From Microcystis aeruginosa NIES-843 (GTDB taxonomy: Bacteria; Cyanobacteriota; Cyanobacteriia; Cyanobacteriales; Microcystaceae): a stretch of 32,000 nt of DNA. The stretch lies in NCBI RefSeq assembly GCF_000010625.1, contig NC_010296.1:1380001-1412000 (forward strand), read 5' to 3'. The translations under genes were made by a program, and so were the position numbers. Below the pieces are notes generated by a model. It did not search any database, was not told the origin of the DNA, and was given only the letters and a program-made list of their open reading frames with translations. Of the stretch, positions 1 through 31,046 are shown one piece after another; the stretch's first letter is position 1; the number at the start of each line of letters is the position of its first letter.

Positions 1-92
1 CATGTCTCACATTTTAGCATATATTTCGTAAACGATGCTCATATTTAACAGTAAAGCCGTCGTAGAACGACGGGGTTTCAGACCCAAATTTT
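1..92 (-). mobile_element. Outer terminus of an inserted element that continues past the left window edge (IS200/IS605-like end proposed)
   Basis: The reverse complement of 41-98 aligns by eye at about 85% identity with 28514-28570 (TCATCG-RAAATTTTGGGTCTGAAACCCCG...GCTTTAC). A subterminal hairpin CCGTCG-TAGAA-CGACGG (57-73) lies 19 nt from the junction. The junction falls inside a PemK/MazF-like reading frame. Confidence 0.4.
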
Positions 93-182
93 CGATGACA
101 AAACCACAGCCGGACGGCGCTTAATTCCTGTCACACCGGGAAAATCAACTGTCACCACATCTCCAGTGGAAAACGTCACCAA
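93..182 (-). pseudogene. PemK/MazF-family toxin, 5' fragment (about 30 codons) truncated by the insertion at 92/93
   Basis: The minus-strand frame from TTG 182-180 / GTG 179-177 reads VTFSTGDVVTVDFPGVTGIKRRPAVVLSS, then KIWV-stop inside the inserted sequence. GD(I/V)V.VDFP...RRP.VVLS is the classic PemK/MazF N-terminus. It starts directly after the stop of the upstream small ORF and is too short for the supplied ORF track. Confidence 0.5.
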
Positions 183-3772: not shown

Positions 3773-3782
3773 CCGTGAGGCT

Positions 3783-4020
3783 ATTTAGGGTTTGCTGAAT
3801 AATGGTAAAACCCTTTTAAAATAAGGCTTTTGACCTGCTAAAATCCGATGTTCATGCTGCGAAAATAGGATTAAGACCTTCAAAAACCTTGCATTATCCT
3901 TCTTTGAGTACACAAACTGGTACAAAAAAAAGAGGACAACAAAACCTGAAACGACCGGCTACTGACTCCTGACTCCTGACTCCTAACCCCACCAACAAAC
4001 TTTTTCAGCAACCCCTATTT
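3783..4020 (-). mobile_element. MITE copy C (TAGGGYTTGCTGAA-type terminal inverted repeats) with an internal (GACTCCT)3 heptamer array
   Basis: Ends are ATTTAGGGTTTGCTGAATAA (3783-) and AAACTTTTTCAGCAACCCCTATTT (-4020). These match the two ends of the copies at 25338-25566 and 27735-27957 in inverted orientation. It fills the convergent gap between the ABC ATPase and purF. Confidence 0.6.
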
Positions 4021-5478
4021 AACTGTTTCTAAGATCAACTTCGATCGCTTAACATTATCGGGTACAGGAATCGGATAATCGCCATTAAAACAGGCAGTAC
4101 AGAAGGTTTTCGGATCTTCCTTCGTTGCTGTTAACATTCCATCGTGACTGAGATAAGCTAAACTATCCACCCCGATTTGTGCCTGAATTTGGGCCACCGA
4201 TTTAGTTGCCGCAATTAATTGCTCTTGGTTGTCCGTATCAATGCCATAAAAACAAGGATGAGTCACCGGAGGTGAAGATATTCTCATGTGAACTTCTCTT
4301 GCTCCGGCATCGCGTAAAGCTTTAACTAATTTCCGGCTAGTGGTTCCCCGCACGATCGAATCATCAACAATAATAACTCTTTTTCCCTGTAAAACATCCT
4401 TTAAAGGATTCAATTTCATCTTAATCCCCGACTCTCTCATGTGTTGGGTTGGTTGAATAAAAGTCCGTCCCACATAACGATTTTTAATCAATCCTTCCGC
4501 ATAGGGAATATCAGAAATGCGCGAAAATCCGATCGCAGCCGGAATACCTGAATCGGGAACTCCCATCACCATATCTGCTTCTACCGGCGACTCTTTGGCT
4601 AATTGTTCCCCCAAACGTACCCGATAAGTATATAAAGATTCCTCGTGAACAATGCTATCGGGACGGGCAAAATAAATCATCTCGAAAACGCATAATTTTT
4701 TCTCCGGTTTAATGGCCCAATCCACCGAAGATAAGCCATCTTCACTAATCCAAACTAATTCCCCCGGCTGCACATCCCGCAGATAATCGGCCCCGATAAT
4801 ATCTAATCCGCAGGTTTCCGAAGCCAAAACATAACGGGAGGGATTACCTTCTTCTTGCAAAACCCCAATTACTAAGGGTCTGACACCATTGGGATCCCGC
4901 GCCCCGATAATTCCCGTCGGTGTGCCGATAACAAGGCTATAAGCCCCGCTACAATAGCTAAAGGCATCGATCGCCGCTTCTATCCAATCCTTGCCACTAT
5001 CCACCTCCTGACCGATAGCGACGGCGATCATTTCCGAGTCGGTGGTGGTGACGAGATCGCAACCGCGCTTTTCTAATACATTTCTTAACTCAAAAGTATT
5101 GACTAAATTGCCGTTATGTGCTAGGGAAAGTTTACCCAAACGGGTTTCGATCACAGCAGGTTGGGCATTGGCCCGACGGCTAGAACCGGTGGTAGAGTAA
5201 CGAGTATGACCGACGGCGTGAGTACCCGGCAAGGTTTTAAGGACAGTTTCGCTAAAAACTTGGGAAACTAAGCCCATTTCTTTGTAACAATGCACCGTTT
5301 CCCCGTCGTAGGTGGCAATACCTGCCGATTCCTGTCCTCGGTGTTGCAGGGCATAGAGTCCGAAATAGGTCAGTTTTGCTACTTCTTCCTCGGGGGCATA
5401 GAGTCCAAAAACTCCACAGGCTTCTTCAGGCTTATCGACGCGGTTCAAGAATAGGGATGAGTCGGGATGGCTAGACAT
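4015..5478 (-). CDS. purF: Amidophosphoribosyltransferase
   Basis: 487 aa. It has a short propeptide before CGVFG (N-terminal nucleophile Cys), a PRTase motif VIIVDDSIVRGTT, and C-terminal Cys ligands (HPCFYGID, CTACFNGDYP). Confidence 0.95.
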   Translation of the reverse strand: MSSHPDSSLFLNRVDKPEEACGVFGLYAPEEEVAKLTYFGLYALQHRGQESAGIATYDGETVHCYKEMGLVSQVFSETVLKTLPGTHAVGHTRYSTTGSSRRANAQPAVIETRLGKLSLAHNGNLVNTFELRNVLEKRGCDLVTTTDSEMIAVAIGQEVDSGKDWIEAAIDAFSYCSGAYSLVIGTPTGIIGARDPNGVRPLVIGVLQEEGNPSRYVLASETCGLDIIGADYLRDVQPGELVWISEDGLSSVDWAIKPEKKLCVFEMIYFARPDSIVHEESLYTYRVRLGEQLAKESPVEADMVMGVPDSGIPAAIGFSRISDIPYAEGLIKNRYVGRTFIQPTQHMRESGIKMKLNPLKDVLQGKRVIIVDDSIVRGTTSRKLVKALRDAGAREVHMRISSPPVTHPCFYGIDTDNQEQLIAATKSVAQIQAQIGVDSLAYLSHDGMLTATKEDPKTFCTACFNGDYPIPVPDNVKRSKLILETVK

Positions 5479-5590
5479 GGGAGGGTTGGGGCTTGGGGCT
5501 ACTTTTGAGACAAAATCTTAACTTATCTTAATCTCTTTTTAACACCTTATTTATGGGGATTTGGGGGGTGGGGAACAGTTATCAGGTGTT

Positions 5591-5670
5591 GGGTTGTTGG
5601 GTTTTAGGGTTTTGGGGTTTTAGGGTTTTGGGGTTTTGGGGTTTTGGGGTGTTAGGGTGTTAGGGTTTTA
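5591..5670 (+). repeat. Octamer tandem array GGGTTTT(A/G)/GGGTGTTA (T4G4-like), about 10 units
   Basis: Read directly: gggttgttgggttttagggttttggggttttagggttttggggttttggggttttggggtgttagggtgttagggtttta. Confidence 0.9.
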
Positions 5671-5679
5671 GCTGAAATT

Positions 5680-5713
5680 CCCCATTTCCCCATTTCCCCA
5701 TTTCCCCATTTCC
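5680..5713 (+). repeat. (CCCCATTT)4 tandem array, which reads (AAATGGGG)4 on the transcribed minus strand
   Basis: Read directly: ccccatttccccatttccccatttccccatttcc. It lies in the purL-purF intergenic spacer. Confidence 0.9.
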
Positions 5714-5745
5714 TCACTCCCGACGACCGACTCCTGTTTCCTTCC

Positions 5746-9845: not shown

Positions 9846-9999
9846 TAAGTAGGTAGGCGTTAAAAGTTGTCAGATGCCCCCCTTATTAAGGGGGGATTAA
9901 GGGGGGATCCCCCCGCCTATCGGCACCCCCCTTATCAAGGGGGGCAGGGGGGATCGAACCTAAAATCCATTTTTAATTTAATTATAACCAGCTACTTAG
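9846..9999. repeat. C6/G6 hairpin-module MITE, short copy
   Basis: The flanks TAAGTAGGTAGGCGTTAAAAGTTGTCAGAT ... TTTAATTTAATTATAACCAGCTACTTAG match those of 16878-17109. The core is CCCCCCTTAT(T/C)AAGGGGGG and GGGGGGATCCCCCC modules. Confidence 0.7.
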
Positions 10000-11044: not shown

Positions 11045-11285
11045 GATGACTTTTGTAAGGTTAAGGGTTAAGTCGAGTGTCCTGTTTCATTTTACTACAA
11101 GGATTAGCTAAAATAGGTTAGTTGAGGTGCATTACATAACATTAACGCCCCCTTCCGAGATCGGCGATCGCTCCTTGTTTGAGTTGGTCGATGAGAGCAT
11201 TATCTCGTTCCCCGGTTCTACCTGAATATTGCTTTAAGGCAGAGCCTTGAAACAAGGGAAATGAGTAGGTAGTGGACTGTTTCAG

Positions 11286-12137
11286 CTAATTTGGTGCAAT
11301 AGATTCTCCCGATTCCTCCTCCTCAAACACAGGATAAAGATGTTTCAGCTTGACCCTAGCATCGCTGGTCGTAAACGTCCATATTACTGTAGATGCAGTC
11401 TGATTACGTTCTTTTTGCCAGGTTTCTATCTCCCTTTTCAGTTCTTCCTTGCTAGAAATCCTTCTATCTAAACATTGCCTCGATAAGACGCTTAGTTCAG
11501 TTTCGGCTACATTTAACCAGCTACCATTACGAGGTGTGTAATAAATTTCCAGTCTTCTAGCTAAACGATGAGCAACGGGTGCTGGAAATGCTTCATAAAG
11601 CGAGGCTATGTTATGAGTGTTGAGATTATCACAGACGAGCTTGACTTTTCGAGCCTTTGGATAGTCCACATCCAATAATTGACGAATTTCTTCTGCCCAA
11701 TCTATTCGGGTTCGACTATCTCGGTTACTCACCCGTCTCCATCCTCGATGGGGGTCAAAAAACATGAACAAGGCTTGAACCCCTTCACGACTATAGTGAT
11801 AGTCTTCTTTTTTATCTTGTCCAGGTTGCATGGGTATCGGAGGGTAAACTTCTCCAAGTAGTTGCTTTGATGCTTCATCCATCGCGATTAACGGTTCTTC
11901 TTCCGATGGCTGAGTGCCATACAGGTCAAGGACAACTTCCATCTGGGCAACAAATCGGGCTAAATCCTGTTCCGGAATACAGTATCTTTGGGTTTTCCAA
12001 GGGCGTAATTGGTTTTTTTTAGAGTACGCCACACCGTTGGACTGGAAATCTCGGTGATAATTTGTCTTTGTTTGAGTTCCGAGGTTAATAGTCGGATTGT
12101 CCACTCGGCTCGGCCAGATGGTGGCTCCGAACAGCAC
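11286..12137 (-). CDS. IS630 transposase, DDE catalytic part (orfB)
   Basis: The -1 frame after the A8 run reads KNQLRPWKTQRYCIP, continuing the family-typical LKPWK motif. DDE-region motifs are IAMDEASK, LVCDNLNTHN and TPRNGSWLNVAE. Confidence 0.8.
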   Translation of the reverse strand: MLFGATIWPSRVDNPTINLGTQTKTNYHRDFQSNGVAYSKKNQLRPWKTQRYCIPEQDLARFVAQMEVVLDLYGTQPSEEEPLIAMDEASKQLLGEVYPPIPMQPGQDKKEDYHYSREGVQALFMFFDPHRGWRRVSNRDSRTRIDWAEEIRQLLDVDYPKARKVKLVCDNLNTHNIASLYEAFPAPVAHRLARRLEIYYTPRNGSWLNVAETELSVLSRQCLDRRISSKEELKREIETWQKERNQTASTVIWTFTTSDARVKLKHLYPVFEEEESGESIAPN

Positions 12138-12463
12138 AGGGCAATGATTTGGGCGGCGGCGGCTCCATCAACTTTTGCCGGAGTGGGGGGAGTTTTTCTC
12201 GATTTCCGTTCTAATGCTGGTTTTTCGCCTTTTTGAAGAAATCTTTGACGAATACGTCCCACTGTATTTCTATGAACTTCTAAAGCTTCGCCTATTTCTT
12301 CATCTGTCCATTTCCTTTTCGCCTGTTCTCCCTCGTCACACATCAGCAAAATCCGAGCGTGGAGAATTTTTTTAGCTGGTGCATAGCCATTACGACTGAT
12401 TTGTTCGAGGTTTTCTCTTTGTTCCCCTGTTAGATTGACTTTATCTCGCCGACCTCTTCCCAT
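11960..12463 (-). CDS. IS630 transposase, N-terminal HTH part (orfA), joined to orfB by a -1 frameshift
   Basis: 167 aa with HTH/winged-helix segments. It ends shortly after the run CTA AAA AAA ACC (A8 on the minus strand; plus-strand T8 at 12013-12020). Confidence 0.8.
   Translation of the reverse strand: MGRGRRDKVNLTGEQRENLEQISRNGYAPAKKILHARILLMCDEGEQAKRKWTDEEIGEALEVHRNTVGRIRQRFLQKGEKPALERKSRKTPPTPAKVDGAAAAQIIALCCSEPPSGRAEWTIRLLTSELKQRQIITEISSPTVWRTLKKTNYALGKPKDTVFRNRI
12013..12020 (-). promoter_or_regulatory. A8 slippery run, candidate programmed -1 frameshift (or transcriptional slippage) site of the IS630 transposase
   Basis: The frame-A codons CTA AAA AAA ACC contain the A AAA AAA heptamer. 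Family homology switches from frame 0 to frame -1 exactly here. Confidence 0.6.
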
Positions 12464-12522
12464 GATTGATGTCCTCTGCTTGTTCGAGCTATTGCCCTAT
12501 TTTAGCTGAAACAGTCCAGTAG

Positions 12523-16877: not shown

Positions 16878-17109
16878 CTAAGTAGGTGGGTGTTAAAAAT
16901 TGTCGGATCCCCCCGCCTATCGGCACCCCCCTTATCAAGGGGGGCAGGGGGGATCAAACCCCCCTTATCAAGGGTAGATCCCCCCGCCTATCGGCACCCC
17001 CCTTATCAAGGGTAGATCCCCCCGCCTATCGGCACCCCCCTTATCAAGGGGGGCAGGGGGGATCAAAGACAATATCTATCTTCAATTTAATTGAAACCAC
17101 TTACTTACA
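16878..17109. repeat. C6/G6 hairpin-module MITE, expanded copy (three GATCCCCCCGCCTATCGGCACCCCCCTTATCAAGGG units)
   Basis: It has the same flanks as 9846-9999 (CTAAGTAGGTGGGTGTTAAAAATTGTCGGAT ... TTCAATTTAATTGAAACCACTTACTTAC). It ends 31 nt before the nfu start codon. Confidence 0.7.
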
Positions 17110-25317: not shown

Positions 25318-25337
25318 ATCCGACCAAATCCCCAATA

Positions 25338-25566
25338 AATAGGGCTTGCTGAAAAAGTTTTTCCTGGGGGCAGGGTGTGGGGTGTGGGGTGTGGGGTGTG
25401 GGGTGTGGGGTTTTATCGATTTTCAGGTGGTCAACTACCTAATTTTCAGGGAAAAAGTACCTGAATTTTCCCCCCAATCACTCCAATGGTCGGCACTTTT
25501 TGAGGGAAAAAAAGTCTAAAAACCTTATCCAACAAGGTTTTTAGATTTATTCAGCAAACCCTAAAT
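25338..25566 (+). mobile_element. MITE copy A (TAGGGYTTGCTGAA-type ends) with an internal (GGTGTGG)n array
   Basis: The ends AAATAGGGCTTGCTGAAAAAG ... TTATTCAGCAAACCCTAAAT are inverted repeats. It is near-identical over its whole length to 27735-27957. Confidence 0.7.
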
Positions 25567-25597
25567 AATCTAGAGACGTTGTCAGCAACGTCTCTAG

Positions 25598-26960
25598 TGG
25601 GACTTAAACGCCAAATAAAGATCAAATCGAGTATAATCGTTAAAGAGTAAGCACTTTACGTTGAAAGATCAGCGATGAAAGAGACAACCCCAGCCGCGAT
25701 GCCCCCATGCTTTGACCGATGGTGTCGGCGGTTTGACAATTGCTTCAAAAACGAAGCGCAAAAAAACGGCTTCAGACAATATTTAGGAGGATTATTAGGG
25801 GAAAGTGAGAGGAAAAACCTCACTCAAATGGCCAATAATGCCGTCGGAGTAGTTTATAACCGATTACATCACTTTTTGACCGAATCTCCCTGGTCAGACC
25901 GTCAGGTGAATGAATGTCGGTTGCAAGTGATGAACCAATGCCGCCAGACGCAAATCCCCCGAGGATTTTCCCTGATTGTCGATGACTCAGGACATCGAAA
26001 AAGTGGCAATCTGACCGCCGGAGTTGGCAGGCAGTACCTAGGAGAAATTGGCAAGACAGACAACGGAATAGTCGCCGTCACTACCCATCTCTACGACGGC
26101 AAAAAAAGTGTCCCCCTAGACATTGAAATTTATCAACCGGCTAGTTCCTTAGCCGAGGGGAAAGAAGACAAAGAATTTAAGAAGAAACCAGAGATAGCGA
26201 TAGATTTAATTGACCGGAGCTTAACCAGAGGCTATCGACCGAAAATCGTCTTAATAGATGCTGGTTATGGCAACAACACAAATTTTCTCAAAGCCCTGGA
26301 AGAAAGAAAGCTAAAATACTTAGGAGGATTGGCAAAAAATCGAAAAGTAATTATTGAAAAAGAAGGGGGTGTGGAAGAAACAATCCAGCTTGAGCAACTA
26401 GCAAAAAGCCTATCAGAAAAGGATTGGGAGAAAATCACCCTAAATCTAGATAAAGAAAAAACGGTTTGGGTAGCGGTATTCAGAGCGAAAATATCTCAAC
26501 TAGAAGGAGAAAGGAACTTGGCGATCGTCATGAATGCAAGTTCAATGGAAAAAGCCACAGAGGTGGACTATTTCATCACCAATGTAGTTGAGGCAGATAC
26601 AGTAACAGCTTCGTGGATAGTGAGGACTTACACCGAAAGAAATTGGGTGGAAGTATTCTACCGAGAAGCCAAAGGATGGTTAGGGTTAAGGGAATATCAA
26701 GTCAGGGATAAACGAAGCTTACTTCGTCATTTTATCCTGGTGTTTTGTGCCTATACATTTATCCTGTGGCATAAGTTAACTGGGGGATTGCAAAGGCAGT
26801 GGGCGAATCGACCTTTAAACACTTTTGTGGAAGCCTTGGAAGCTTTTCGGACAGCGATGTCTTTCCGTTTCTTTGAGTGGCTGACCGAGAATCGGGATGT
26901 GTTTGCCGCTTACAAAGCCAGTTTAGGCTTTGTTTGGGCTTGAAATTTGTTTAAGTCCCA
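25598..26960 (+). mobile_element. IS701-like insertion sequence with a CTAG target-site duplication
   Basis: The inverted ends are TGGGACTTAAAC (25598-) and GTTTAAGTCCCA (-26960). CTAG is present at 25594-25597 and 26961-26964. Confidence 0.8.
25675..26943 (+). CDS. IS701/IS4-superfamily DDE transposase
   Basis: 422 aa with SLIVDDSGHRKSG, VLIDAGYGNN and YTERNWVEVFYREAKGWLGLREYQVR. Confidence 0.85.
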   Translation: MKETTPAAMPPCFDRWCRRFDNCFKNEAQKNGFRQYLGGLLGESERKNLTQMANNAVGVVYNRLHHFLTESPWSDRQVNECRLQVMNQCRQTQIPRGFSLIVDDSGHRKSGNLTAGVGRQYLGEIGKTDNGIVAVTTHLYDGKKSVPLDIEIYQPASSLAEGKEDKEFKKKPEIAIDLIDRSLTRGYRPKIVLIDAGYGNNTNFLKALEERKLKYLGGLAKNRKVIIEKEGGVEETIQLEQLAKSLSEKDWEKITLNLDKEKTVWVAVFRAKISQLEGERNLAIVMNASSMEKATEVDYFITNVVEADTVTASWIVRTYTERNWVEVFYREAKGWLGLREYQVRDKRSLLRHFILVFCAYTFILWHKLTGGLQRQWANRPLNTFVEALEAFRTAMSFRFFEWLTENRDVFAAYKASLGFVWA

Positions 26961-27192
26961 CTAGCAGTTTTTGCCATTGTTTGCGTCGGGGTTTCTCGTT
27001 CTAGATTTTTGTAAATTTTTGTAAATTTAACTTGTTTTAAAACACTTTTTCTGATAGGGATTATCCAGAAAAAAATAGATGAAAGAGAGAAATCGTCAAG
27101 ACAATAATCTTGTTTGCTGCCTGATCCCGGTCAATGATAAATTTTAAAATACCTAGTCTTTTACATTTTCCCAACTCTCGGAGTGATCCCCG

Positions 27193-27588
27193 ATGTTAAA
27201 AAATCTCTTTGGTGGCAAAAAATCTGACTTTTACCTAGAACTAAAAGAAACCGATGGTGAACAAAAAGCAACAGCAACCACGGCAGCAGCCGCGCCTGTT
27301 GTGGAAGCGCCCGCCCCTGCTGTGGAGTCTGCTGCCGCCCCTGTAGCCGAGAAAAAAGCGAAAAAAACTTCTGTTAAGAAAGAAAAGCAAGCAAAAGAAA
27401 CTCCCGCCGCTCCTGTGAGCGCACCGGCCCCCGTAGCCCCCACTAACGGTAAAGTAGAGCCGCAAGAAGTGGAATTTGCGACAAAATACTTGATTACTCC
27501 TAGTATGTCTCGCCGTCGCCCTGGTCCAAGTTTGAATGGTTTCAAAGACATGGCGCGCAAAGCGAAACTACCTGCTAACCGCGGCTAA
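27193..27588 (+). CDS. Hypothetical protein with an Ala/Pro/Lys-rich disordered centre and a basic C-terminal motif
   Basis: 131 aa. N-terminus MLKNLFGGKKSDFYLEL, C-terminus KYLITPSMSRRRPGPSLNGFKDMARKA. A terminator-like hairpin follows. Confidence 0.6.
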   Translation: MLKNLFGGKKSDFYLELKETDGEQKATATTAAAAPVVEAPAPAVESAAAPVAEKKAKKTSVKKEKQAKETPAAPVSAPAPVAPTNGKVEPQEVEFATKYLITPSMSRRRPGPSLNGFKDMARKAKLPANRG

Positions 27589-27610
27589 ATCCCCCCCGGA
27601 TTGCTTTCTC

Positions 27611-27646
27611 AAAAAAAAAGGAGAGCTTTCTTTGACTCTCCTTTTT
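27611..27646 (+). terminator. Terminator-like hairpin (A tract, GGAGAG ... CTCTCC, T5)
   Basis: AAAAAAAAAGGAGAG-CTTTCTTTGA-CTCTCCTTTTT lies 23 nt after the stop codon. The symmetric A/T tracts could work in both directions. Confidence 0.55.
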
Positions 27647-27734
27647 CATCAGGGTGCATCTACTAACTCAAGTGTAGCAGCGAGTTTTTTTAAGGTTGGT
27701 TATTTAGGTTACTCCCTAGAGTATTTTGGGGATA

Positions 27735-27957
27735 ATTAGGGCCTGCTGAAAAAGTTTTTCGTGGGGACAGGGTGTGGGGTGTGGGGTGTGGGGTGTAGGT
27801 TTTTACCGATTCTCATCTGGTCAATTACCTAATTTTCAGAGAAAAAGTCCTGGAATTTTCCCCCCGCTCCCTCCAATGGCTGGCACTTTTTAAGGGGAAA
27901 AAAGTCTAAAAGTCTTACCCAACAAGGTTTTTAGATTTATTCAGCAAAGTCTAATTA
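27735..27957 (+). mobile_element. MITE copy B (same family and orientation as copy A)
   Basis: The ends are TTAGGGCCTGCTGAAAAAG ... TTATTCAGCAAAGTCTAATTA, with an internal (GGTGTGG)n array. Confidence 0.7.
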
Positions 27958-28053: not shown

Positions 28054-28446
28054 TTAGGGATTAACTTTCGCCGCTCGGATTAGCCAACCGATTACCCCAC
28101 CCGTAACACCACTGAGGATCGAACTGAGCGAAGCGGTGATCACCACTACCCCGATCTGTTTCCAGTTTTTCAATTCTCCGACTTTTTCGGCGAGATCGGT
28201 GGTTTTTCCCGCCGCGTTCTCTTTGACTTTAACTCGATCGCTTAAACCCTCTATCTTCGCGTCTAGGGTTCGGATATCGCCTTTAATTTCCGACTGCCCT
28301 AACTCTAAATTCTTCTGTCCGTTTTCTATGGTGGTTAGTCGGTTTTCCATGGTGGTTAGTCGGTTTTCGATCGCTTTTTGTCCGTTGGCAATGCCGATAA
28401 TTAAATCCTCCAATCTTTTTAAATCTTTTTCAGTGGCGGCTGTCAT
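28054..28446 (-). CDS. Tail-anchored coiled-coil protein (N-terminal heptad repeats, single C-terminal TM helix)
   Basis: 130 aa. It contains ENRLTTMENRLTTIENGQKNLE and the C-terminal IGVVVITASLSSILSGVTGGVIGWLI. Confidence 0.6.
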   Translation of the reverse strand: MTAATEKDLKRLEDLIIGIANGQKAIENRLTTMENRLTTIENGQKNLELGQSEIKGDIRTLDAKIEGLSDRVKVKENAAGKTTDLAEKVGELKNWKQIGVVVITASLSSILSGVTGGVIGWLIRAAKVNP

Positions 28447-28513
28447 CAGTTAAACTCCTCTTAGTTGAATTTTTCTTGCCCCGATTCGATACTTTATTGA
28501 TTGCGGATAACTT

Positions 28514-28872
28514 TCTCATCGGAAATTTTGGGTCTGAAACCCCGCCGTTCTAGGTTGGCTTTACGTTAGAATTAAAAGGCCAGTCTCGAAAACCAAGTGG
28601 ACGGCGCAGCACCTTGAAAACTCGGCTTAGGGGGTTCCGACCAGAAAAGCTTGGCCGGGTAAAAAGTCGCGCGCAACAAGTACAAGAAGCTATAGGCGGT
28701 CAACGTACCGTGGGACACACGGAATCGGGCTTCTGAAATGGGGCGAAAGTCTGTGGACTCTGTGTAAGACAGTACATGGTTTTTTAACTGTGGTATGCGA
28801 CGGTGGTGGAAGCAGAAACTTAAATCGTGAGGTTTAGGAATCGCCGCACTTTTAGGGCGGCGAGGATGTCAA
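28514..28872 (+). mobile_element. ORF-less structured element: proposed non-autonomous IS200/IS605-type element, possibly an orphan omega-RNA-like scaffold
   Basis: No ORF appears in any frame of the track. The left ~55 nt equals the module at the window start. The left hairpin is at 28542-28558. The right hairpin TCGCCGC-ACTTTTAGG-GCGGCGA is at 28841-28863, followed by GGATG-TCAA ending at 28872. Confidence 0.4.
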
Positions 28873-28874
28873 TA

Positions 28875-31046
28875 TCAACTTCCCTCCCAGATTTTTAAAT
28901 AGGCATTTTCCATATTTTCAGCGAATTTTTTCCCTTGCCAGAGGGGGGCTGTGTCACGATTTCCTAACAGTTGATGGCTGATGTCTTGACGAAGGGAGCG
29001 ATCGAGTCCTAATTTTACTCCCCAGTCGATATATTCTGCCTCATTCCAGCCAATTCCGGCTTCAATACCGGCATTAATCATAAAAGTATAACTATTGCGC
29101 GCGGAAAATTGTTCTCCTACCAGTGTAACTAAAGGGATTCCTTGCCATAAAACTTCTAAGGTGGTGGTAGCGCCATTGTAGGGATAGGTATCTAACACCA
29201 CATCAGCAATCTGTAAATTAGCGCGATGGGTATATTCATCTATATCTCTCGGTAAAAATCGCAATCTTTGGGGATTAACTCCCTCCAGAATCGCTATTTC
29301 AGTAAATAATTCTTGAATTTTTTCAGTCTTACCGACTCCCTTAATCAGAAAATAACTATTAGGCACTTGTGCGAGAATTTTCATCTGAAGTTTAATAGTA
29401 TCAGGATGACGTTTCATGCCACTTTGTACGGAAAAATAGATGGTAGCATCGGGGGGAATTTCTAAATCTTCTCGACGGAGATTAGGAGTACCGATTTCAA
29501 AACCATCCACTGCTAAATATGTCTCTGGTAAACGATAGATTTTTTCTCGATAATATTCCTCCGCTTGCTGGGGTAAAACGTAGGGATCGGCGATATAGTA
29601 ATCAATAGTTGCTAATCCAGAAGCATCCCAACCTAACCAAGTCACTTGTTTTGCTGCGGGTTTCAGGGCGATAATCTGATTGGTGAGATTATGGGTTAAA
29701 CTATCTAAATCTACTAGAATATCTATCTGATCCTGTTGAATTTGTTGGGCAACTTCTAGGGGATTTTGAGCGTAGGGAAAATGACGGATAATATCTCGGC
29801 TATCCCGGAACCATTGACGGGTAATTTCATCTTCTTCTTGGTTAATAGTATAGATGGCTATTTGCAATTTTTCTCGATCATGATGGTGAATTAACCAACG
29901 ACTTAACCAACCGACAGAATGATGTTTTAAGGTACTGGCAAGATAACCGATCGTTAGTTTTTCTGGAACTTTTTTGATAGTAACCAAAGGAGTTTTTAAG
30001 CTATTATTATCAAGGAAAATTTCGGCGATGCGATTAGTTAATTGTCGATTGGCTAAAGCTCGATCGCCTAGGTAGGGTAGGGGACTAGAAACATTGAGAA
30101 AGCTAGTTTTAATAATCGGTTCTAAAGTGATATTTTTCTGACGGGTTAATTCCTGTAATAAATCATGATATTCTTGATAAATATGATCAATTTCTTGCCA
30201 AACTCCCCAGCGCAAAAGTATTAACAAAATCAGATAATTACTGTATAACTTTAGGGTTGGAGTTAGACAAATTTCTCGGAATTGATAGGCAGTTATCAAA
30301 GAATTATCAAAGTCTTCTGCTAAAATATAGAGGTTAACCAATTGTTCCAAAAGACTCAGATCATTTGGTCTTAATTGCAGACAAAGTTTAATAATTTCCA
30401 CTCCAAAAGTGGGACTTTGTTGCTCGTTGGTGACTCGTGCTGCTATCTGAAAAGCTTGCGGGATAAAACTATCGGCTAATTCCTCCAGGTAGGGTAAACT
30501 TGCTTGAGCTAAGTCTAAAGTTAATTCATGGGGATATAAAAGACTTTTGAGAACTACATTTAAAAGTAATTCTCGATCGGGATTAGATCTGAGATTCTCT
30601 TGAATAGGATAATTAAGTAGTTCTTCAGGATCAAATATTTCTAAATCTAAAGCTAAGTCGAATAAAGCTAATAAATTATTAATTGACTTGGGAACAATTT
30701 CCTGTAGATGATAGCGAAAATATTCTACAGCTGCCAGATCACCTTTTCTTTGTTGTCGTCGCGCTTCTGCGTCTAAAACCGCTTCTAATTCTGCTTGCCA
30801 TTGCTTAACTTCTTCCAGATTACCTTCGCTTAAAATACTTTGCCACATTACCTGTGCTGCTGCTTCTAAATTTTGCAGAAGATAGGCAACTCCCAAGTAC
30901 CAATAGTCAGAAATATTTTCGGAATTGTTATCGATTAGTTCCTCGTAGATTGCCGCAACTTGAGGATAATCTTCGGCAATTAAAGCTTGATAAGCGTCAG
31001 GATGCCACATAAAAAACTTAGGGTGTGTTAACGAATTGTAACACAC
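28875..31046 (-). CDS. TPR-like N-terminal region fused to a GT41 (SPINDLY/O-GlcNAc-transferase-family) glycosyltransferase
   Basis: The C-terminal half carries IGYLASTLKHHSVGWL, QVTWLGWDASGLATIDYYIADPYV, HPDTIKLQMKIL, LDTYPYNGATTTLEVLWQGIPLVT and FSARNSY. The track start is GTG 31046. The ATG at 31010 (MWHPDAY) is the likelier start. Confidence 0.85.
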   Translation of the reverse strand: MCYNSLTHPKFFMWHPDAYQALIAEDYPQVAAIYEELIDNNSENISDYWYLGVAYLLQNLEAAAQVMWQSILSEGNLEEVKQWQAELEAVLDAEARRQQRKGDLAAVEYFRYHLQEIVPKSINNLLALFDLALDLEIFDPEELLNYPIQENLRSNPDRELLLNVVLKSLLYPHELTLDLAQASLPYLEELADSFIPQAFQIAARVTNEQQSPTFGVEIIKLCLQLRPNDLSLLEQLVNLYILAEDFDNSLITAYQFREICLTPTLKLYSNYLILLILLRWGVWQEIDHIYQEYHDLLQELTRQKNITLEPIIKTSFLNVSSPLPYLGDRALANRQLTNRIAEIFLDNNSLKTPLVTIKKVPEKLTIGYLASTLKHHSVGWLSRWLIHHHDREKLQIAIYTINQEEDEITRQWFRDSRDIIRHFPYAQNPLEVAQQIQQDQIDILVDLDSLTHNLTNQIIALKPAAKQVTWLGWDASGLATIDYYIADPYVLPQQAEEYYREKIYRLPETYLAVDGFEIGTPNLRREDLEIPPDATIYFSVQSGMKRHPDTIKLQMKILAQVPNSYFLIKGVGKTEKIQELFTEIAILEGVNPQRLRFLPRDIDEYTHRANLQIADVVLDTYPYNGATTTLEVLWQGIPLVTLVGEQFSARNSYTFMINAGIEAGIGWNEAEYIDWGVKLGLDRSLRQDISHQLLGNRDTAPLWQGKKFAENMENAYLKIWEGS

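Follow-up and report, generated by a model that had tools for sequence, protein, structure and literature searches.

In the genome of Microcystis aeruginosa NIES-843, about 350 bp of gene-less DNA end two nucleotides before the stop codon (28875-28877) of a convergent glycosyltransferase gene (Glyco_transf_41, GT41) on the opposite strand. The question raised by this locus is what kind of element these nucleotides represent, and whether they specify an RNA. The locus lies in a stretch of 32,000 nucleotides (contig NC_010296.1, positions 1,380,001 to 1,412,000 of the forward strand), which was analysed as a whole and is referred to as the window; all coordinates are window positions unless a record is named. 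Inspection of the letters alone, hereafter the sequence-only reading, had placed a highly structured element with IS200/IS605-style ends at 28514-28872, and had proposed that it is a miniature single-strand-transposon derivative, possibly with an orphan omega-RNA. The comparisons described below confirm the miniature transposon by its ends, target motif, empty sites and relatives, and place it at 28520-28872 on the plus strand (353 bp). The element, termed the mini element, is almost certainly a protein-less, non-autonomous IS200/IS605 derivative that resembles the palindrome-associated transposable elements (PATEs) and, by the sequence of its ends, falls into the family of the TnpB-only insertion sequence (IS) ISMae10. 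The full explanation, in which this miniature transposon also carries an omega-RNA module that is used in trans, is assigned a probability of roughly 0.75.

Boundaries, ends and gene-bearing relatives

Both edges of the mini element are set by two empty sites. At the window's own locus four sister strains are occupied and one (L124) is empty, the junction reading ...GATAACTTTCTCAT|TATCAATTTCCC, also given as ...CTTTCTCAT|TATCAAT.... The sister-strain loci were retrieved via a neighbouring 130-residue protein; a look-up with the 723-residue GT41 open reading frame (ORF) gave no record, probably reflecting a different choice of start codon. The second empty site (L076), which is the counterpart of the copy in L087, reads CCAT|caatagg. 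Nothing is duplicated at either site, and the junctions, TCAT| (left) and TCAA| (right), are compatible with those proposed earlier. It follows from the empty sites that TCAT (28516-28519) is flanking DNA and that the adjacent CG (28520-28521) lies inside the element. The right edge given by the sequence-only reading thus stands, whereas its left edge moves from 28514 to 28520, and of the hexamer TCATCG that it had placed outside the left end only TCAT is external. Each of the 85 left ends compared is preceded by TCAT, and no conservation is seen over the six positions before this motif.

The same limits are found at other loci. Among the copies, homology extends precisely from TCATCG to GTCAA, and the flanks beyond either limit are unrelated. 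The multi-copy character and the conserved ends that had been predicted were confirmed: in Microcystis and related genomes and metagenomes, complete copies occupy at least 19 distinct sites, with copy lengths of 176-469 bp. Most full-length copies of the window type are 98-100% identical and occupy many different sites in other genomes, a pattern well outside the reach of chance; the spread to many sites is recent. A third sequence type turned up when metagenomes were scanned, as did several deletion derivatives. In plasmid and phage collections no copy of the interior was found, the matches being limited to the left end (LE) or the right end (RE), and a scan of viral contigs with an interior pattern gave 0 matches.

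Terminal inverted repeats are absent. The start of the LE (CGGAAATTTTGGGTCTG) does not match the reverse complement of the RE (TTGACATCCTCGCCGCC), and a repeat search of the window reported no terminal inverted-repeat pair for the mini element. Insertion at a fixed position 3' of TCAT, the absence of terminal inverted repeats and the absence of a target duplication together constitute an IS200/IS605-type signature, and not that of a DDE-type miniature transposable element with inverted repeats (MITE).

The ends of the mini element are shared with gene-bearing elements, in line with the expectation that relatives with tnpA or tnpB should exist. A scan of representative genomes with a left-end 24-mer yielded at least 120 stretches, most of which are from Microcystis; other genera among the stretches listed are Planktothrix, Microcoleus, Crocosphaera, Cyanothece, Nostoc and Calothrix. 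In these loci the spacing from LE to RE takes one of two values, i.e., ~1.29-1.33 kb with a tnpB gene or ~350 bp without a gene. The full-length elements encode a TnpB of ~396 residues with HTH_OrfB_IS605, OrfB_IS605 and Cas12f1-like TNB domains, in which the motifs IDLG, VVENL and DRDINAS are readable at the expected positions of the RuvC acidic residues. At least nine of these full-length elements share both LE and RE with the mini element. Strain NIES-843 has been reported to contain 49 copies of ISMae10, an element of 1330 bp from the IS605 family (Kaneko et al. 2007, PMC2779907); the full-length copies are labelled ISMae10 here by three criteria only, namely length, family and host. The closest tnpA-bearing relative found, an autonomous element that carries a Y1 tnpA as well as tnpB and has an LE and an RE of the same type, is present on a Chroococcidiopsis plasmid (L130), where the flanking motif is different (..TTAT). 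The TnpA of this relative gave only distant enterobacterial and other IS200 matches when compared with plasmids. Active IS200/IS605 tnpA genes of 444 bp have been reported in Microcystis PCC 7806 (PMC11448079).

A second family member is found at the left edge of the window, on the minus strand (Table 1). It runs off the window edge, and in contig HE973776.1 (locus L144) the corresponding sequence continues with MEKAYSFRFYPT... and then enters a run of N, an assembly gap that is ascribed to the repeat; the repeat family is flagged as one that breaks Microcystis assemblies. The 5' end of an ISMae10-type tnpB is thus located ~28 kb from the mini element on the same contig, providing a source of TnpB in the same genome.

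The LE of the mini element is 87-90% identical to that of the ISMae10-like TnpB elements over ~45-55 nt. Within the window, segments 28522-28564 and 51-93 are inverted relative to each other and 88% identical over 43 nt (86% over 58 nt by blastn), which bears out the reported similarity of the left end to the reverse complement of 41-98. The two segments share a 26-mer, TTTGGGTCTGAAACCCCGYCGTTCTA, of which the window contains exactly two copies, as against 0 expected from shuffles. The imperfect left hairpin of the sequence-only reading is present, at 22 nt inside the true junction. In the relatives this subterminal hairpin is perfect and covaries (CCGTCG/CGACGG, CCGCCG/CGGCGG and CCGTCC/GGACGG). 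The degenerate arm TCTAGGTTGG (28548-28558) is also observed in some full-length TnpB copies (L011 and L031), and the mini copy in L014 carries a perfect CCGCCG/CGGCGG hairpin. This sharing of LE arms suggests that mini and full-length ends have undergone exchange or conversion, or else that AACC and GGTT pair as an alternative.

At the other end, hairpin H5 (28841-28863) has a perfect 7-bp stem, TCGCCGC/GCGGCGA, and is followed by GGATG and by the terminal TCAA (28869-28872); this hairpin, its position relative to the GT41 stop codon, and the sequence that it shares with the left hairpin had all been described correctly. The last 64 nt of the mini element align at 86-90% identity with the terminal ~20 nt of tnpB and ~45 nt beyond it in elements from Calothrix, Stanieria and Microcystis plasmids, the tnpB genes of the plasmid matches being annotated as 'IS891/IS1136/IS1341 transposase' or 'RNA-guided endonuclease TnpB'. 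These RE relatives all terminate in GAGGATGTCAA and diverge directly after GTCAA. The H5 loop of the mini element, CACTTTTAGGG, is like that of the Calothrix and Stanieria plasmid elements and unlike that of the Microcystis full-length type, TCCGTTTTACGG. Matches of enterobacterial plasmids to 28835-28872 (92% over 38 nt, E 7e-4) represent a short GC-hairpin similarity and were disregarded.

The locus and the family show a few further peculiarities. In L124 (GCA_007095495.1, SFBZ01000266.1) another insert of ~220 bp, carrying heptamer-type repeats (CCCGTCT / GGAGTCT), lies ~25 nt to the left of the empty site, equivalent to window position ~28494. The presence of a different insert so close to the empty site indicates that the intergenic spacer is a recurrent landing site for unrelated small mobile elements. 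Two mini copies contain a nested insert at the same internal position (window ~28610), of 112 nt in L013 (2919-3030) and of 53 nt in L098 (7124-7174). This nested insert is a small palindromic element, CCGTTCGGCGGTTCGGCTGAG...CTCACGGCCGAAG, and the mini element serves in its turn as a landing site of another tiny repeat. The Microcystis phages MaMV-DL01, MaMV-DL02 and MaMV-DH01 (PP681323.1, with the module at 39591-39654, PP681324.1 and OP394178.1) carry the RE/omega-RNA 3' module of the full-length type at two places per genome (87.5% identity over 64 nt), and this IS family thus resides in cyanophage genomes too.

Plus-strand structure and homology to TnpB omega-RNAs

The omega-RNA of TnpB (also known as right-end RNA, reRNA), e.g., that of ISDra2, is a multi-helix scaffold encoded by the 3'-terminal part of tnpB or by the DNA just downstream (Karvelis et al. 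2021, PMC8612924; Nakagawa et al. 2023, PMC10097598). A covariance model (R1), built solely from the regions between hairpin H1 and the RE of seven TnpB-bearing elements, gives a single match in the 32-kb window, at 28727-28872 on the plus strand, with a score of 87.1 bits, an E value of 6.8e-24 and coverage of model positions 1-158. The proposed omega-RNA homology therefore holds for the right end, while upstream of the last 64 nt the resemblance is loose only. Between the ends it is limited to a loose collinearity with the 3' end of tnpB, with H1 and the blocks GTCTGTGGA and TAAGAC as landmarks. H1 is the counterpart of a hairpin inside the tnpB 3' end of the full-length elements, and its stem covaries (CCGCA/TGCGG, CGGCA/TGCCG, CGGTG/CACCG, CTGCG/CGCAG and CCGAT/ATCGG). 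Compared with the full-length elements, the mini element has an extra hairpin of ~24 nt and is missing a variable hairpin.

The clearest indication that the interior specifies a structured RNA comes from the comparison of three mini lineages, which are 75-92% identical overall. The RNAalifold structure of their alignment contains 93 pairs and, with 95.9% of the alignment cells paired, shows 9 compensatory pairs, as against 1.6 +/- 1.1 in shuffles, none of which (0/500) reaches 9, and slid controls yield 0-2; one and the same alignment served for the structure prediction and for the pair counts. An alternative MAFFT alignment (A3) misplaced H1 of the mini elements and was not used for counting. 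All 9 compensatory pairs are located in helices of the interior and the RE (28607-28863). None occurs in the helices of the LE region, which break in the diverged lineage. Many of the pairs are G-U pairs, which are workable on the plus strand only. In addition, the interior is 73-79% conserved between lineages whose segment following the LE is 45% identical.

The description of the element as highly structured is thus borne out by covariation among diverged copies but not by its folding energy. The calculated energies favour the plus strand (-115 kcal/mol) over the minus strand (-88 kcal/mol), and the corresponding z-scores against shuffles are unremarkable, so that folding energy was rejected as evidence and covariation was used instead. 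A search of the whole window against Rfam 15 gave no family at the gathering threshold; Rfam has no model for this lineage, and the result has no bearing on function. At E values up to 10, the region 28300-29000 gave chance-level matches to HgcC (14.4 bits, against a gathering score of 50) and to a scaRNA, which were rejected. No tRNA or tmRNA was found by ARAGORN.

It is evident that ~260 nt of interior and RE keep a plus-strand secondary structure by compensatory substitutions. A transposon end that is recognised by TnpA requires only the subterminal hairpin region, and the maintenance of ~260 nt of strand-specific structure is best explained by a plus-strand RNA. Such an RNA would have the orientation and the position of a TnpB omega-RNA, and its probable identity as such is suggested by homology, position and covariation. 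Transcription could start from a candidate -10 box, TAGAAT (Table 1). At nearly this position, offset by 3 nt upstream in alignment A4, the diverged type-B copy in L028 carries a perfect TATAAT, the rest of that segment being only 45% identical.

Table 1. Positions of the mini element, its parts and a second family member in the window
Feature	Position	Strand	Description
Mini element proper	28520..28872	+	CGGAAATTTT...GAGGATGTCAA; no protein-coding capacity; limits from empty sites and from 98-100% identical copies at other loci
TCAT target motif, putative transposon-adjacent motif (TAM)	28516..28519	+	flanking DNA outside the element; kept at empty sites
Left end (LE)	28520..28564	+	hairpin GGGT-CTGAA-ACCC (28530-28542); degenerate subterminal hairpin CCGCCG-TTCTA-GGTTGG (28542-28558)
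TAGAAT, candidate -10 box	28567..28572	+	putative, for rightward transcription
Interior structured domain specific to mini elements	28607..28808	+	long-range closing helix and several hairpins (RNAalifold); compensatory changes in helices 5, 7, 11 and 12
Hairpin H1	28708..28722	+	CCGTG-GGACA-CACGG; counterpart inside the tnpB 3' end of full-length elements
Right end (RE) and 3' part of the omega-RNA-like scaffold	28809..28872	+	hairpins H4 (28819-28838) and H5 (28841-28863); tail GGATGTCAA
Predicted guide segment	28873..28888	+	TATCAACTTCCCTCCC, if transcribed rightward; extends into the final codons and stop codon of GT41 (convergent)
Second family member	1..98	-	TCAT (98-95), LE (94 downward), ISMae10-type tnpB start codon (3-1); 98% identical to full-length LEs

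Alternative explanations and known systems

Several observations weigh against an omega-RNA module that is used in trans. Strong homology to the TnpB-linked omega-RNA regions is confined to the last 64 nt. A search with R1 from which the 3'-terminal 60 nt were withheld recovered only H1 (model positions 4-18, E 0.011), which identifies the strong homology as that of a 3' module. A profile of the interior, searched with nhmmer against all fetched loci, recovered mini copies only and no TnpB-bearing element, and tblastn of ten TnpB proteins against the mini element gave nothing but scraps with E > 0.1 (QKSL..KVAR and VGHT..VCG..R), so that derivation of the interior from tnpB is unproven. By both methods ~28565-28707 has no TnpB-element counterpart. 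As a consequence of this lack of a counterpart, the compatibility of the mini RNA with ISMae10 TnpB is unproven as well. The covariation is based on three lineages only, and the folding-energy z-scores (-1.47 for the plus strand and -0.60 for the minus strand) are not significant. Neither a consensus sigma-70 promoter, in a two-hexamer scan, nor an intrinsic terminator was detected in 28300-29100. The LE hairpin is degraded to CCGCCG/GGTTGG in the window lineage, and tblastn with the Chroococcidiopsis TnpA against all fetched loci revealed no tnpA beside these ends in the sampled Microcystis loci. Finally, deletion derivatives of 176-263 bp, in which most of the interior is gone, occupy sites of their own, from which it follows that the interior is dispensable for persistence at a site.

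Much of this would be expected if the mini element were a mobile but RNA-inert remnant, consisting of ends that TnpA can recognise and of junk in between, with the omega-RNA-like 3' part kept only through its overlap with the RE. Such a remnant would agree with the restriction of strong TnpB-element homology to ~45-55 nt of LE and 64 nt of RE, with the failure to find a consensus promoter or terminator, with the deletion derivatives and with a thermodynamic stability that does not exceed that of shuffles. It does not explain the excess of compensatory changes, which extends over ~260 nt and thus far beyond the ~50 nt needed by a TnpA end, nor the G-U pairs that are specific to the plus strand, the higher conservation of the interior than of the post-LE segment, or the collinearity of H1, GTCTGTGGA and TAAGAC with the TnpB-linked region; an RNA-inert remnant is on balance unlikely. 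A functional RNA need not act with TnpB, and the position of the element next to GT41 could point to a small RNA antisense to the 3' end of the GT41 mRNA, which rightward read-out would produce, or to a minus-strand hairpin in the 3' untranslated region that stabilises the GT41 transcript. The interior has no counterpart in TnpB elements, and IS200-derived regulatory small RNAs are known in other bacteria, as far as can be taken from their citation in PMC11448079. However, copies are present in many unrelated contexts with different right flanks, which makes an effect on the neighbour incidental; the plus-strand-specific structure argues against a minus-strand role, and the 3' module coincides exactly with the TnpB-associated module and, in the manner of omega-RNA scaffolds, stops at the edge of the transposon. 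A TnpB-independent RNA or neighbour effect is accordingly regarded as quite improbable. Membership outside the IS200/IS605 group, as a classical DDE MITE, a repetitive extragenic palindromic (REP)-type repeat, an intron or a known housekeeping or regulatory RNA, might be considered in a window that is rich in other repeats and DDE-type ISs and in a genus with many MITEs (PMC2779907). It is scarcely credible in view of the missing terminal inverted repeats, the two empty sites without target-site duplication, the fixed insertion 3' of TCAT, the sharing of both ends with tnpB and tnpA elements, and the lack of an Rfam family at threshold (HgcC, at 14 bits, being the best) or of a tRNA or tmRNA. 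Moreover, the mini element is not obviously among the families MaeMITEa-h, as compared by published descriptions, which define these by inverted repeats and give other lengths (PMC2779907).

The preferred explanation, a miniature IS200/IS605 transposon with an omega-RNA module used in trans, assigns the mini element to a kind that is already known, and no new class is involved. PATEs, i.e., protein-less derivatives of IS1341/IS605-type elements, were named in haloarchaea and have been reported for ISGst1 and ISGst5 in Geobacillus stearothermophilus; they 'often encode omega-RNAs', which are necessarily acted on in trans (Meers et al. 2023, bioRxiv 10.1101/2023.03.14.532601). Like PATEs, the mini element has no coding capacity, shares LE and RE with subterminal hairpins with tnpB-bearing ISs, retains the omega-RNA-bearing right end, and inserts beside a fixed short motif without target duplication. 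It differs in its occurrence in Microcystis and the Microcystaceae, in its target TCAT and end TCAA, and in an interior of ~240 nt that is no simple internal-deletion remnant of a partner IS and yet covaries across three lineages. What is specific here is a delimited cyanobacterial family (TCAT/TCAA) with many recent insertions and a covarying interior that is not recognisable as a deletion remnant of the partner IS. No earlier account of the mini element was found in the literature.

The relation to the individual partner systems is similarly one of shared ends and divergent content. With ISMae10 the mini element has in common the target TCAT, the LE (87-90% over ~50 nt) and the RE/omega-RNA 3' module (87-89% over 64 nt, with the same terminus). 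The ISMae10-like elements are ~1.33 kb long and encode the ~396-residue TnpB, whereas the mini element is gene-less and corresponds to them in its ends alone. Like TnpB omega-RNAs, the mini element is predicted from its sequence to have a multi-helix scaffold ending exactly at the RE boundary, a guide derived from the flank and a TAM that equals the target motif. Unlike the TnpB systems, it has no adjacent tnpB, is demonstrably homologous only in its 3' 64 nt and H1, and has no Rfam match. The Y1 TnpA elements IS608 and ISDra2, which move as single strands by 'peel-and-paste', also insert 3' of a fixed tetra- or pentanucleotide, lack terminal inverted repeats and target-site duplications, and have imperfect subterminal palindromes; the right end of IS608, too, terminates in TCAA. 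Their target motifs are different (TTAC for IS608 and TTGAT for ISDra2, versus TCAT), and the mini element has no tnpA in cis.

A predicted guide RNA, and other elements of the window

Since the guides of omega-RNAs correspond to the DNA just outside the RE (Karvelis 2021, PMC8612924; Meers 2023), the guide of the mini element is predicted at 28873-28888. At the empty site, TCAT is directly followed by this predicted guide sequence, with one single-nucleotide polymorphism. The flanking TCAT and the last four bases of the element, TCAA, differ only at the base beside the guide. Discrimination by TnpB between the element itself and an empty site would thus hinge on a single nucleotide.

In the mechanism proposed, a Y1 TnpA supplied in trans would excise the plus strand as single-stranded DNA and insert it 3' of TCAT. 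Rightward transcription, possibly from TAGAAT, would yield a scaffold with the flank-derived guide TATCAACTTCCCTCCC, antisense to the terminal part of GT41. The mini RNA could then be bound by ISMae10-type TnpB that is produced from other loci of the genome, where dozens of such copies exist. The TnpB-RNA complex would cut a vacated site (TCAT followed by the guide sequence), and recombination with another copy of the chromosome would restore the element, while the occupied site would be spared, the guide match there being preceded by TCAA and not by TCAT. For the predicted trans-acting omega-RNA function as such, the odds appear about even.

One step further, and with rather less confidence than that, the mini element may be viewed as a 'guide-only' hyperparasite of IS200/IS605 elements, which has shed tnpA and tnpB, has kept and extended under selection an omega-RNA driven by its own promoter, and depends on borrowed TnpA in order to move and on borrowed TnpB in order to be retained, by homing, in polyploid Microcystis. 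On this tentative proposal, the extended RNA would include a lineage-specific 5' domain of ~200 nt that is supported by covariation and absent from the TnpB-encoding relatives. The flank of each copy would serve as a guide, and the family would programme the resident TnpB with many extra guides.

With its exact boundaries, two empty sites and three lineages, the family would provide a natural example of an omega-RNA module that is kept by selection after loss of the nuclease gene. If the RNA is used in trans, the modularity of TnpB and omega-RNA that Meers et al. suggested, without testing it, is realised in nature; RNA-guided homing is open to exploitation by non-coding parasites, and the effective guide repertoire of TnpB in a genome exceeds the number of its tnpB genes. 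If the RNA is not used, the mini element is one more small non-autonomous IS derivative. For the ISMae10-type TnpB, which is abundant in this bloom-forming cyanobacterium, the analysis in addition defines a TAM-like motif (TCAT), the motif at the end of the element (TCAA) and a candidate scaffold.

The longest ORFs in the region of the mini element encode 48 residues (28572-28718, minus strand) and 40 residues (28614-28736, plus strand), in agreement with the earlier statement that none reaches 60 residues. Elsewhere in the window, at 25335-27957, a DDE_5/DDE_Tnp_1 transposase gene (25675-26943) is situated between direct copies of a repeat, at 25335-25567 and 27732-27957. These copies are ~190-260 bp long, 87-93% identical and each provided with GGGGTGT repeats; an inverted, diverged copy is present at 3782-4021. 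The repeats around this transposase gene look like a MITE-like family that flanks an IS. Another IS is found at 11270-12521, where inverted repeats of 33 nt (11270-11302 and 12489-12521, 85% complementary) enclose a DDE_3 (IS630-type) transposase ORF on the minus strand (11286-12137).

Two adjoining tandem arrays with a period of 8 are located between two minus-strand ORFs at 5575-5721, the first consisting of ~9 copies of GGGTTTTN and the second of ~4 copies of TTCCCCAT. Furthermore, a perfect palindrome of 21 nt, CCCCCCTTATCAAGGGGGG, occurs at 9877, 9926, 16926, 16959, 16997 and 17035 (regions 9875-9946 and 16926-17055), with copies lying inside a repeat of ~100 nt that is present at 9896-9998, 16896-16998 and 17005-17107.

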